Assembly (NCBI GenBank): GCA_965221775.1
Contig: CBDCSU010000006.1
Location: 640,001 to 704,000 of the forward strand
Direction: 5' to 3'
Length of the DNA: 64,000 nucleotides
Origin: Candidatus Latescibacterota bacterium
GTDB taxonomy: Bacteria; Latescibacterota; UBA2968; UBA8231
The notes beneath the pieces are model-generated. The model made no database searches. It was not told the DNA's origin and was given only the letters and a program-made list of their open reading frames with translations. Within the stretch, counting starts at the first letter, position 1. Each line of letters opens with the position of its first letter. The position numbers were made by a program, and so were the translations under genes. Below, one piece after another: positions 4,766 through 7,593 of the stretch.

Positions 4766-6526
4766 TCACTCCCGCACCGCCAAGTGAAGCTCCCGGAGCT
4801 GCTCGGCGGACACCTCCCCCGGGGCGCCCATGAGCGGGTCCTGCGCATGCTGGTTCATGGGGAAGGCGATCACCTCCCGGATGTTCGGTTCGTCCGCCAG
4901 CAGCATGACGATGCGGTCGATGCCGGGGGCGATGCCGCCGTGGGGAGGGGCGCCGAAGCGCAGGGCGCGGATCATGCAGCCAAACCGGCGCTCCACCTCC
5001 TGCCGCGGGTACCCGGCGATCTCGAAGGCCTTGTACATGATGTCGGGCCGGTGGTTGCGGATGGCGCCGCTCGACAGCTCGACGCCGTTGCAGACGATGT
5101 CGTACTGGTACGCCTTGATCTCCAGCGGCGGCTGCGTCTCCAGGGCCTCCATCCCGCCCTGCGGCATGGAGAAGGGGTTGTGCGAGAAGGCGGCATGGTC
5201 CCGCTCCTGGTCCCACTCGTACATCGGGAAGTCGACGATCCAGCAGAACTCGTAGCATCCCTGCCGCCGCAGTTCGAGCCGGTCCGCCAGATGCAGGCGC
5301 AGCCGTCCCGCCAGGGTCGCCGCCTCGTCCGGAGGTCCGGCGATGAGGAGGATCGCCGACCCCGGCTCGGGCGAGCACTCCTCGGCGATGCGTGCGATCG
5401 TGCTCTCTTCCAGGGCCGCGGCGATCGATCCGGTGGCCCGGCCCCCGGGGATGAGCCAGGCCAGCCCCTGGCCGCCGGACTCTCTGACGAAGTCCTCGAG
5501 ACCGTCGAAGAACGAGCGCGGACGGACCTCGAGACCGGGCACGCACAGGGCGCGGACGACCCCACCTTCGGCGACGATCTCCCGAAACAGCCGGAACGAG
5601 GAATCCGCGAAAATGTGTGACAGGTCCCGGATCTCGAGCCCGAAGCGCAGGTCCGGCTTGTCCGTGCCGAAGCGCAGCATGGCCTCGGCGTGCGAGAAGC
5701 GCGGAAAGGGCTTCCCGGTCACCTGCCAGTCGCTGAACTCGTGGAACAGACCGGAGAACAGCTCCTCCACGACAGCGAAGATGTCCTCCTGCTCGACGAA
5801 GGCCATCTCCATGTCGCACTGGTAGTGTTCCCCGGGGGAGCGGTCGGCGCGGGCATCCTCGTCGCGGAAGCAGGGCGCGATCTGGAAGTAGCGGTCGAAG
5901 CCGGAAACCATCAGCAGCTGCTTGAACTGCTGCGGCGACTGCGGCAGCGCGTAGAAGCGGCCGGGGTAGAGCCGGCTCGGCACGAGGTAGTCGCGGGCGC
6001 CCTCGGGCGAGCTGCTGGTGAGCACGGGCGTCTGGAACTCGGTGAAGCCCATCTCCGACATGCGCCGCCGGATGCTGGTGATCACCTCCGAGCGCAACTG
6101 GATACGCCGGTGCAGCCCTTCCCGGCGCAGGTCCAGAAAGCGATAGGACAAGCGCATGCTCTCCCCCGTCTCGGCCTCTTCCGCCACCGAAAAGGGGAGC
6201 GGCTCCGCCGGCGACAGCACTTCCATCTCCCCCACGGCGACTTCCACCTCTCCCGTCTCCATCGCCCGGTTGATGGACTCTGGCGAACGCTCCCTCACCT
6301 CTCCCTCGACGCGGACCACCGACTCGCGGGGGACCCTGGCCGCGGTGGCCGCGGAGTCGTTCTCCGGCGAGACCACGAGCTGGGTGAGGCCGTAGTGGTC
6401 GCGCAGGTCGAGGAACAGCACGCCCCCGTGGTCCCTTCGGCGGTGTATCCAGCCGCTCAGGCGAACGCTCCGGCCGGCATGGCGCCGGCGGAGCTCGCCG
6501 CAGGTGTGAGTGCGATAGCGGTGCAT
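4766..6526 (-). CDS. aspS: Aspartate-tRNA(Asp/Asn) ligase, probably non-discriminating
   Basis: [15 protein letters not shown] (His typical of non-discriminating enzymes), [38 protein letters not shown]. Confidence 0.97.
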
Positions 6527-6560
6527 GGCAGTGCTTCTCCCAGGTTGTCGGACGGGCACG

Positions 6561-6593
6561 AAAAAACCCGCCGCGATGCGTGTTCGCGACGGG
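6561..6593 (-). terminator. Intrinsic terminator of the aspS attenuator
   Basis: CCCGUCGCGA-ACACGCA-UCGCGGCGGG-UUUUUU, ending ~35 nt before the aspS start. Confidence 0.85.
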
Positions 6594-6627
6594 TCGGGAT
6601 CTCCAGGATCGGAGTTGGAGCGGGTCG

Positions 6628-6720
6628 TCAGAACACGCGCAATGGGGCGGGCGGATTGTTATCGCCCGGGTTGGCCGGATTGTTGTGCGTGCAGGCGTTC
6701 TGACGGGTCATCATGATCAT
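6628..6720 (-). CDS. Asn-rich leader peptide [30 protein letters not shown]
   Basis: Translated by hand: 6 Asn + 1 Asp in 30 aa; lies between a promoter and the terminator; true start may be the ATG at 6714 or 6711. Confidence 0.8.
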
Positions 6721-6723
6721 TCG

Positions 6724-6752
6724 AGTGTAAGGAGGGAGCCGGACTTCGTCAA
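6724..6752 (-). promoter_or_regulatory. Sigma70 promoter for leader-aspS
   Basis: TTGACG(6752-6747)-N17-TACACT(6729-6724). Confidence 0.8.
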
Positions 6753-7135
6753 TCAGGCTCCTTCAAGTGCCCCCGAACCTGTTCAAGCAAGGCCTCCACA
6801 AGGGCGAGCGCGGCCTTGCGATCGATCGGTTCGGCACCCGGGTCGAGACCCCCGTACCGGAACTCGACGGCATACGGCGTGTACAATGTCAACTCTCGGT
6901 GAGCCTCCACGTCGACATCGCGCCCGGCGAGCAGATTCACCAGGGTCTCGAGATTGTGGGTCAACGGATAGGTTTCGCCCAGCAGTGCGAGCCAGGCCTT
7001 GAAGGACTTCTCAGCCGCTTGCTGAAGGTGGAATCCATACGACTCATCCGGTGCTCCCGCCGTCATGTTCCGGAGCGTGAGGACATCGCGTTCAGCCGCT
7101 CCGAGCAGCATCCGCGCGCACTTAGGGTCGCTCAT
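6749..7135 (-). CDS. HEPN-domain toxin
   Basis: GFHLQQAAEKSFKA, YPLTHNL, YAVEFRY. Confidence 0.9.
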   Translation of the reverse strand: MSDPKCARMLLGAAERDVLTLRNMTAGAPDESYGFHLQQAAEKSFKAWLALLGETYPLTHNLETLVNLLAGRDVDVEAHRELTLYTPYAVEFRYGGLDPGAEPIDRKAALALVEALLEQVRGHLKEPD

Positions 7136-7457
7136 AGAGCACCTTCCCTTCCCGCAGCGCGCGCGCCAGAACGTGGTTGAGGGAGTCGCGCCAGTAGTCG
7201 ACCTCGTCCCGGGTATAGACCAGGATGTCGGCGGAGACCGGAAAGTCCGCCAGGACCTTGTAGAGTCTGACCATCTCCTTGTGCCGGCTTCGTTTCCCGT
7301 CGAAGGGCTCGGACTCGACGACCACCAGATCGACGTCCGATTCCTCCCGCTCCTCGCCACGTGCACGGGACCCGAAGAGGATGACCCTCTCGGGATCGAC
7401 TTCCTCGACAACGGCCGTGACCATCCGGCCAATGAGTGATTCCGTGACGCCGGTCAT
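7122..7457 (-). CDS. Minimal nucleotidyltransferase (MNT) antitoxin
   Basis: ILFGSRARG..SDVDL; ALREGKVLY; overlaps the HEPN gene. Confidence 0.9.
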   Translation of the reverse strand: MTGVTESLIGRMVTAVVEEVDPERVILFGSRARGEEREESDVDLVVVESEPFDGKRSRHKEMVRLYKVLADFPVSADILVYTRDEVDYWRDSLNHVLARALREGKVLYERP

Positions 7458-7593
7458 TGCTCTACCCATTCGATCGGCGCACACCGCCGATCCTCTCTCG
7501 CGGCTTAAGTTACCCCAATCAACGCAGCAATGCCCACCCTGGCCTCGCTCACCGATCCGGCCGTGGTCGGGCGCCGCCCCGGCTTCCCGCCCC

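Follow-up and report, generated by a model that had tools for sequence, protein, structure and literature searches.

Ribosome-mediated attenuation by short leader peptides is the classical mode of control of the trp, his, thr, leu, ilv and pheA genes of Escherichia coli and, among the synthetase genes, of the operon pheST. The work of Saad et al. from 2012 and 2013 is said to describe T-box control of an extra aspartyl-tRNA synthetase (AspRS) gene and of GatCAB genes in Clostridium acetobutylicum, and this T-box reportedly carries a specifier for asparagine (Asn). A passage of PMC1262725 contains predicted attenuators on trpS and leuS in Streptomyces. The sections of PMC4206432 that concern tRNA-dependent Asn synthesis describe Thermus/Deinococcus and Bdellovibrio bacteriovorus as organisms that make Asn on tRNA-Asn, and they call a second AspRS rare. 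Here we describe a locus of Candidatus Latescibacterota bacterium (assembly GCA_965221775.1) that is located in a stretch of 64,000 nt, hereafter the window (contig CBDCSU010000006.1, positions 640,001 to 704,000; all coordinates below count from its first nucleotide). At this locus a short open reading frame (ORF) rich in Asn codons and a set of alternative RNA helices precede aspS2, the gene for an accessory AspRS (AspRS2). We conclude, with a probability of roughly three in four, that the element is a ribosome-mediated attenuator of the trp/his/pheST class that senses Asn codons and controls aspS2, and that AspRS2 serves tRNA-dependent Asn synthesis. Sequence comparison and modelling established the leader anatomy, the mutually exclusive helices, the extent to which the leader is conserved, its signature of a coding sequence, and the sets of genes present in the genomes.

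The preliminary description of the locus, made from the letters of the window, had placed a promoter, a leader ORF, three pairing segments and a terminator with six U on the minus strand. This anatomy was confirmed to the base, and the promoter, the ORF, helices 1:2, 2:3 and 3:4 and the U-tract all lie between 6752 and 6561, 5' of aspS2 (6526-4766; Table 1). All parts of the proposed trp/pheST layout are present, namely the leader ORF, three mutually exclusive helices, a stop codon inside segment 2 and the U-tract. The promoter is the sole sigma-70-like site between 4000 and 8000, where shuffled sequences would lead one to expect 0.2. TTGACG or TTGACA occupies the same position in most relatives, and the -10 hexamer TACACT is also found in the closest relative G155, with TACCCT in G111 (genomes are cited by number where they have to be told apart; G000 is that of the window). 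The leader start has to be revised. An ORF from ATG 6720 does exist and would extend the leader by the residues MI to 30 codons, but comparison with relatives favors the in-frame ATG 6714 as the probable start, because the 6720 ATG is missing in G155 and because the distance from the -10 box to the ATG is 8 nt in g7-type genomes, 9 nt to ATG 6714 here and 10 nt in G155. A Shine-Dalgarno (SD) sequence is absent before the leader ATG, as had been noted before, and together with the steady 8-10 nt distance this suggests that the leader mRNA is probably leaderless or nearly so. Leaderless translation is not obligatory for the element, given the 23-nt 5' untranslated region in G121.

Table 1. Features of the aspS2 leader region in the window.
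Feature	Position	Strand	Remarks
-35 box TTGACG	6747-6752	-	overlaps the TGA stop of the upstream HEPN gene
-10 box TACACT	6724-6729	-	spacer 17 nt
Leader ORF with TGA	6628-6714	-	28 codons from ATG 6714 (MMTRQN...); 6 Asn, 1 Asp
Six Asn codons (within 6655-6699)	AAC 6699-6697; AAC AAU 6684-6679; AAC 6672-6670; AAC AAU 6660-6655	-	
Asp codon GAU of the leader	6663-6661	-	
Segment 1, CGUCAGAAC	6705-6697	-	
5' arm of helix 1:2, segment 1 CGUCAGAACGC	6695-6705	-	includes the first Asn codon
Segment 2, GCGUGUUCUGACG	6626-6638	-	partner of segment 1 or 3; leader stop TGA 6630-6628 inside
Segment 3, CGUCGCGAACACGC	6578-6591	-	terminator 5' arm and loop; antiterminator with segment 2 (8 + 5 bp)
Intrinsic terminator 3:4	6595-6565	-	12 pairs, 7-nt loop; U6 at 6566-6561
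SD of aspS2, GGGAG	6541-6537	-	
aspS2	ATG 6526 to TGA 4766	-	accessory 586-aa bacterial-type AspRS with GAD domain

Chance is excluded as the source of the Asn content of the leader. Asn accounts for 2.06% of all codons in the genome (1185 coding-like ORFs), versus six of the 28 leader codons, and among 12,073 short ATG-initiated ORFs (15-45 aa, six frames, whole genome) only the leader ORF has six Asn. Fifteen other short ORFs contain at least four, and none of the 15 has a terminator downstream. The codon AAU represents 7.6% of the Asn codons genome-wide.

The element recurs in relatives, whose aspS upstream regions had been proposed as the place to look for Asn-rich ORFs and covarying helices. 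When 185,579 species genomes were scanned for the exact pattern of segment 2, a gap of 15-45 nt and segment 3, 20 matches were obtained. Nineteen of them are located directly upstream of aspS2 orthologues in Latescibacterota-type metagenome-assembled genomes (MAGs); the twentieth falls by chance within a coding sequence of an unrelated MAG. In the family, the DNA preceding each of the 33 aspS2 orthologues was examined; one locus (G085) is cut by a contig end. Each of the 32 readable loci harbors one or more ORFs whose last 30 codons include 3-8 Asn and which end 22-43 nt before a terminator adjoining aspS2. A single leader as in the window (type 1) is present in 12 genomes, the window included, and 16 genomes have tandem attenuators in which leader 1 and its own terminator are followed by a leader 2 (e.g., MTFQHKHTARALSHNNDDNNPAIRARWRWP, then stop) with its own SD, antiterminator and terminator. 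A contig end leaves only leader 2 visible in G131, and leader 1 of G083 has been remodelled by replacement of its 5' half and an earlier stop, with leader 2 intact. Three genomes from a different genus have an unrelated architecture (g11-type; ...NNNQDHNRTSTGGTAPAG or ...NNNQDHNRTS...AG before the stop) with a different antiterminator and terminator. In G153 its ORF stands alone, and the ORF is fused in frame to an upstream class II lysS gene, whose C-terminal tail it forms, in G101 and G109. In the latter two, lysS is located directly 5' of aspS2 (G101, L127; G109, L128; ~400-515; L160:460-2064; NF001756, 558 bits), and the LysRS frame reads on into the Asn-rich sensing stretch over some 45 residues (...VDNNGDNNNQGNNNRTSAGGTATAG, then stop), so that the leader is the tail of LysRS. 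This upstream lysS encodes the only class II LysRS above the cut-off in G101 and G109; a class II LysRS was not found in the window genome at E<=1e-50. The locus of G083 (L133) and two others look like products of recombination or deletion: the promoter is deleted in G145 (L142), and in G125 (L139) the first terminator is joined to sequence normally found 3' of the second. Outside the family, 75 outgroup aspS loci for which 150 nt or more of upstream DNA was available were scanned in a crude manner, and no leader-like Asn run was detected; in seven A+T-rich ones, 4-5 Asn are scattered over open frames, with neither runs nor ATG-bounded leaders.

The variation among these leaders resembles that of a translated sequence. 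Compared with its relatives the leader exhibits indels of 18 and 21 nt inside the ORF, whereas those in the non-coding stretch from segment 2 to segment 3 measure 1, 2 and 5 nt. AAC and AAU are swapped among the leaders of relatives, and the Asn codons differ in number and placement (NNNN; NN..N..NN; NNSNSTNNDN) with the enrichment kept. In all three leader architectures the stop codon is located within or beside the antiterminator arm. The frame-preserving indels, the codon swaps, the shifting Asn codons and the existence of three architectures argue against a mere A+T-rich binding site. Leader 1 contains 4-8 Asn versus 0-3 Asp codons in all genomes (0-2 except in G154), in accordance with the earlier proposal that Asn-tRNA rather than Asp-tRNA is sensed. 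For the relatives this proposal has to be qualified: their leader 2 has 1-3 Asp codons among the Asn codons, and the tandem Asn+Asp leader probably senses Asp-tRNA as well.

The expected covariation was recovered in one of the three type-1 helices (alignment A2, 26 distinct leaders). Helix 2:3 is paired in 96.1% and contains two compensatory changes from U-A to C-G (G060, G145), a value reached by 3 of 500 shuffles. Helix 3:4 is almost invariant (99% of cells paired) and helix 1:2 is paired in 85.9%, both with no compensatory change and no better than shuffles. For leader 2 (alignment A3, 16 sequences) the antiterminator is paired in 98.1% and the terminator in 100%, with one compensatory pair each. 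As judged from these alignments, the covariation support is real but thin, because the clade is shallow. All carriers of the element belong to one family of sponge-associated MAGs, a label based on 19 runs from 8 studies that hold at least half of the sampled words.

The leader was also studied by RNA folding. Its minimum free energy structure consists of helix 1:2 and the terminator (-67.8 kcal/mol; z = -2.68), with 3 of 200 shuffles equally stable. The three duplexes are nearly isoenergetic (1:2, -18.3; 2:3, -21.2; 3:4, -22.0 kcal/mol), and the terminator hairpin folds with -21.5 kcal/mol. The antiterminator 2:3 shares bases with the 5' arm of the terminator, which makes the two helices mutually exclusive, and nascent RNA from segment 2 through the terminator loop, i.e., without segments 1 and 4, folds as 2:3 (-24.6 kcal/mol). 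In a masking model, in which a 28-nt ribosome footprint was masked and the RNA refolded at equilibrium, placing the A site at the Asn codon 6699, inside segment 1, or at 6684 turns the window leader to 2:3, and the terminator is kept with a ribosome on the stop codon or without a ribosome. Leader 2 of G140 (...HNNDDNNPAIRARWRWP, then stop) retains 0 of 11 terminator pairs at all six of its Asn and Asp codons and 11 of 11 at the stop, and leader 1 of G154 switches at the first five such codons. The masking result for G146 is void, as an outer helix was wrongly taken as the terminator. The leader anatomy fits the trp paradigm.

From this material we infer that the leader is translated, that ribosomes stall in it, that the element responds to Asn and that AspRS2 acts on tRNA-Asn. 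Transcription would begin at the leader ATG or immediately before it. If Asn-tRNA(Asn) is plentiful, the ribosome would reach the UGA in segment 2 and cover this segment, 3:4 would form and the polymerase would stop at 6566-6561; with no ribosome at all, 1:2 and 3:4 would form and transcription would stop too. When Asn-tRNA(Asn) is scarce, the ribosome would stall on Asn codons at or just past segment 1 and block 1:2, segment 2 would pair with segment 3, and the terminator would be pre-empted, with transcription of aspS2 as the outcome. The induced AspRS2 would make more Asp-tRNA(Asn) for amidation to Asn-tRNA(Asn) and hence raise the tRNA-dependent Asn flux.

The gene content of the genome conforms to the link with tRNA-dependent Asn synthesis that had been suggested for this locus. 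It encodes AsnRS (482 bits), GlnRS (669.5 bits) and GatB (535.6 bits), from which the presence of GatCAB is read, and it has a single tRNA-Asn(GUU) with a U1-A72 pair and a tRNA-Asp with G1-C72. The search of the window genome revealed no AsnA and, for canonical AsnB, no TIGR01536 match above the cut-off. The sole Asn_synthase match is a 565-aa protein with a weak PP-loop domain that lacks the GATase domain and Cys2, and its gene is located between an aminotransferase-like ORF and a membrane-protein ORF (names read from translations). Judged by its genes, the window genome is configured like those of Thermus/Deinococcus/Bdellovibrio, which make their Asn on tRNA-Asn. Given GatCAB, AsnRS, GlnRS and the U1-A72 pair of tRNA-Asn and the absence of AsnA and canonical AsnB, AspRS2 is most likely induced for Asp-tRNA(Asn). 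The presence of the partners of the indirect route does not tell which AspRS is non-discriminating (ND). The gatB match itself (contig C4:22608-24020) is part of an open frame of about 1113 aa, as in G155, G111 and G107, compared with ~480-600 aa in most other genomes; this may represent a fusion or a long upstream open frame in G+C-rich DNA.

The same set of genes is widespread in the family, with AsnRS in 70, GatB in 74 and GlnRS in 72 of 76 genomes, AsnA in none and AsnB (over the cut-off) in 36. AsnB is found in 8 of the 33 AspRS2-positive genomes versus 28 of the 43 that lack AspRS2. Within the genus of the window, all three AspRS2-positive genomes are without AsnB, and of the six AspRS2-negative ones three have AsnB and one more has part of it at a contig edge; two incomplete AspRS2-negative genomes and G061 are without it. 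As the genomes are kin, this negative association is to be taken as a pattern rather than a statistical test; still, it connects AspRS2 with the supply of Asn.

The genome (six contigs, 96.8% complete) contains two bacterial-type aspS genes, and the copy in the window (NF001750, 795 bits; TIGR00459, 607 bits) is the second, accessory one; a second aspS, gatCAB and asnS had been named beforehand as genes to look for, and GatB and AsnRS were found with it. The housekeeping AspRS1 on contig C4 (TIGR00459, 733 bits) is 45% identical to AspRS2. When 120 genomes of the phylum were sampled, all those that gave a match had the C4 type (41-46% identity to the query), and AspRS2 was confined to the window's own family, hence its classification as an accessory paralogue. 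It is full-length in 33 of 76 family genomes, with fragments in a few others. The nearest homologues outside the family (57-62% identity) stem mostly from Alphaproteobacteria and partly from Fibrobacteres, Lentisphaerae and Spirochaetes; these identity values suggest horizontal acquisition. Decaying copies of aspS2 (G061, G066, G078, G082 [L129], G114 [L130] and G153), among them fragments with 58-86% identity, indicate that the accessory gene is being lost repeatedly in the family: in G114 it is split and lacks terminator and leader, the locus of G082 is broken, and that of G153 has an in-frame TAG.

The proposal that aspS2 encodes an ND enzyme was evaluated by alignment to solved AspRS structures at two anticodon-domain positions. 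Bernard et al. (2006) reportedly showed that both of them, His in RRRDHGG and Gly in RPEG, govern tRNA-Asn recognition. The Asp/Asn enzymes of P. aeruginosa and mycobacteria have RRRDHGG and RPEG, the discriminating one of T. thermophilus has RRRDLGG and no Gly, and that of E. coli has RRRDLGS and Lys. AspRS1 (TRRDHGG, RPQG) is ND-like at both positions; AspRS2 (RRRDHGG, RSPES) has the His. As an ND marker the His31/Gly83-type signature was discarded, as it does not tell the two paralogues apart and is not universal. In five cultured Sphingomonadales no AsnRS was found over the cut-off, and the sole AspRS of each shares 58-61% identity with AspRS2; these enzymes must charge tRNA-Asn, being the only AspRS in genomes without AsnRS, and they share the motifs RDHG and RS[PA]E[ST]xN with AspRS2. 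Since they also lack the Gly, the second position of the signature is not universal. The signature of AspRS2 is mixed, with the His at the first position and no Gly at the second; the Sphingomonadales homologues lend indirect support to a possible ND character, and AspRS1 looks ND as well. The leader logic, mostly Asn with Asp added in leader 2, would fit an enzyme that feeds both Asp and Asn decoding.

Several observations weigh against an Asn-sensing attenuator on an ND aspS2. Antitermination is obtained in the masking model at two of the six Asn codons of the window and at one of six in a shorter construct; at the four later codons the model lets 1:2 re-form round the ribosome. The earlier idea that stalling masks segment 1 thus holds for the first two codons, and the role of the others would depend on a steric or kinetic argument. 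The constructs of G060, G153 and of leader 2 of G154 never switch at equilibrium. Uncompensated 1:2 mismatches exist in several genomes, and helix 2:3 has an uncompensated C.A in G136 and two non-compensatory changes in G125. On the metabolic side, the eight AspRS2-positive genomes with AsnB have both systems, and 15 of the 76 genomes have neither. AspRS2 has Glu where the solved ND enzymes have Gly, AspRS1 is the paralogue with both signature residues, and GatB is retained in 41 of the 43 family genomes without AspRS2, so that AspRS1 may itself be ND and supply Asp-tRNA(Asn), as in Bdellovibrio. The sole material from an RNA library consists of contigs of a relative with about 91% identity (one metatranscriptome run, X20), for which DNA carry-over is possible: record 28 covers 6382-6681 and thereby crosses the terminator, and record 29 covers 6652-6742, extends upstream past the predicted start and then passes into dissimilar sequence. 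We counted these contigs as evidence neither way, as they represent the sequence of a relative and show no ends. Breaks of DNA contigs at 6565-6592 (runs X1, X11 and X17; 28-nt overlap) were dismissed as an assembly artefact at the inverted repeat.

These points bear unequally on the alternative explanations. The attenuator could be real and AspRS2 discriminating: under Asn shortage uncharged tRNA-Asn would compete for an ND AspRS1, and AspRS2 would be induced to protect Asp-tRNA(Asp), or the leader would report the general status of Asx-tRNA. The signature residues of the two paralogues, the retention of GatB in genomes without AspRS2 and the Asp codons in leader 2 of relatives all agree with this scenario, and the PDB entry that AspRS2 matches best over its full length is the T. 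thermophilus enzyme, a discriminating one. We nevertheless regard this scenario as unlikely in view of the predominance of Asn over Asp codons in leader 1 of all genomes, the negative association of AspRS2 with AsnB, and the nearest outgroup homologues, which share the loop motif and are the only AspRS of five AsnRS-less genomes.

Explanations that dispense with a translated sensor are much less probable. The hairpin could simply end the operon upstream or act constitutively as a partial terminator, and the Asn-rich ORF could have arisen incidentally from an A+T-rich element that binds protein or lies close to the promoter. AAT repeats do form A+T-rich islands in DNA with 70% G+C, and helix 3:4 is the only terminator-like site within the 4 kb between 4000 and 8000, compared with 1.7 expected in shuffles, so that the presence of a terminator by itself is not above chance. 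The window Asn codons are mostly AAC and dispersed, however, the indels speak for translation, and the Asn run is combined with antiterminator and terminator in three unrelated architectures with the stop codon always in or next to the antiterminator arm. Moreover, the upstream neighbors of the locus vary among genomes (here a HEPN/nucleotidyltransferase pair) and the leader always travels with aspS2, to which it consequently belongs. An explanation without amino-acid sensing is therefore highly improbable in our opinion. Slightly more improbable still is a direct RNA sensor, such as T-box-like tRNA binding or a metabolite riboswitch, or a protein-bound element with an untranslated leader. Synthetase genes are often under T-box control, and a passage of PMC2494555 names one T-box-regulated aspS of C. 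acetobutylicum; Rfam recognized neither a T-box nor another family in the window element or in seven relatives. The search of 6300-7000 at E<=10 gave no T-box, only CrfA (E 0.87) and a weak M23, and that of the regions of the seven relatives at E<=0.1 gave no match. Both hits were rejected, as CrfA covers the terminator hairpin alone and M23 (14.5 bits, E 9.4; 6468-6500) is a chance-level match inside the aspS2 coding region. In addition, the stretch separating segments 1 and 2 differs among relatives in sequence and, by whole codons, in length; such variability would be incompatible with a structured aptamer.

The window genome contains two more candidates for attenuation. A strict genome-wide scan yielded 41 terminators, 24 short ORFs ending at most 90 nt upstream of one, and three leaders with runs of rare residues (Asn, Trp and Cys). 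The Trp leader MTDNRTDNPRRWWWRFWSYEMGQRCVHP (WWW; contig C5, minus strand, ORF start at plus-coordinate 1478782) has a promoter TTGACA-17-TACTAT and a 12-bp terminator followed by trpE-trpD-trpC (names read from translations), i.e., a classical-looking trp attenuator. The Cys leader ...AGTCCCCCCEPTPGREAVP with six consecutive Cys codons (contig C6, minus strand, ORF start at plus-coordinate 189779) precedes a 12-bp terminator and cysH, cysC and sat-like (sulfate adenylyltransferase) genes, also named from their translations. Cys leader peptides without terminators have been predicted in Actinobacteria according to a passage of PMC1262725, in contrast to the terminator-bearing Cys leader found here. 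Directly upstream of the aspS2 leader, also on the minus strand, are genes for a HEPN-domain protein (6749-7132) and a nucleotidyltransferase (7122-7484), which overlap at their ends and look like a toxin-antitoxin pair of the HEPN/MNT type.

Full-text literature searches returned no Asn leader-peptide attenuator, in agreement with the statement of the preliminary description that none was known on aspS, and PMC2659441 lists only an unspecified structure upstream of Shewanella aspS. A description of Asn-leader regulation of a second AspRS was likewise not found, and the genome survey of PMC4206432 may list other bacterial-type second AspRS genes. New are the sensed amino acid, the mismatch between Asn codons and an Asp enzyme, a bacterial-type second AspRS as target, and the tandem and lysS-fused forms. 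The stricter claim that AspRS2 is a dedicated, Asn-starvation-inducible enzyme for the aspartylation of tRNA-Asn and that its leader is the first ribosome-mediated Asn attenuator has, in our estimation, an even chance of being correct. If it is, asparagine would join the short list of amino acids sensed by leader-peptide attenuation, and this would be the first attenuator whose sensed codons (Asn) differ from the amino acid of the regulated synthetase (Asp), with a leader that reads the end product of a two-enzyme, tRNA-dependent pathway. It would also provide a regulatory argument for the participation of a bacterial-type second AspRS in tRNA-dependent Asn synthesis. The evolution of the sensor would comprise tandem duplication (Asn, Asn+Asp), replacement by an unrelated architecture and capture as a lysS tail, and in the fused form ribosomes finishing one synthetase gene would decide about the transcription of the next. 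The tandem and lysS-fused forms amount to natural experiments in the construction and reconstruction of attenuators. Together with the Trp and Cys loci, the element would indicate that uncultured Latescibacterota use classical attenuation. Asn codons over an Asp-tRNA synthetase gene constitute a testable prediction of pathway logic, for which the Clostridium T-box is so far the only parallel.

The comparison with described systems summarizes what is shared and what is particular. With the classical attenuators the aspS2 element has in common a short ORF rich in the sensed codon, the alternative helices 1:2, 2:3 and 3:4, an intrinsic terminator and, as in pheST, trpS and leuS, an aminoacyl-tRNA synthetase target. 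It differs from them by its proposed sensing of Asn codons, by a sensed amino acid that is not that of the regulated synthetase, by the stop codon inside segment 2 and by the location of most regulatory codons in the 1:2 loop instead of segment 1, as well as by its probably leaderless mRNA, the tandem copies and the variant fused to the 3' end of lysS. With respect to Asn metabolism, the genome resembles T. thermophilus, D. radiodurans and Bdellovibrio in having AsnRS, GlnRS, GatCAB and a tRNA-Asn with U1-A72 and in lacking AsnA and AsnB, and the family genomes with AspRS1 only are similar to Bdellovibrio. Thermus and Deinococcus also carry a second AspRS, which is of the archaeal type, whereas AspRS2 is a bacterial-type enzyme with a GAD domain and is closest to alphaproteobacterial ones. 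In C. acetobutylicum, as is proposed here, an extra aspS of the indirect route is under RNA-level attenuation tied to tRNA charging and coexists with AsnRS. The T-box of this bacterium binds uncharged tRNA, whereas the Latescibacterota locus, from a different phylum and without a T-box, would employ a translated leader and ribosome stalling; by analogy of function, the Clostridium T-box on the extra aspS and GatCAB genes is the nearest counterpart of the aspS2 leader.

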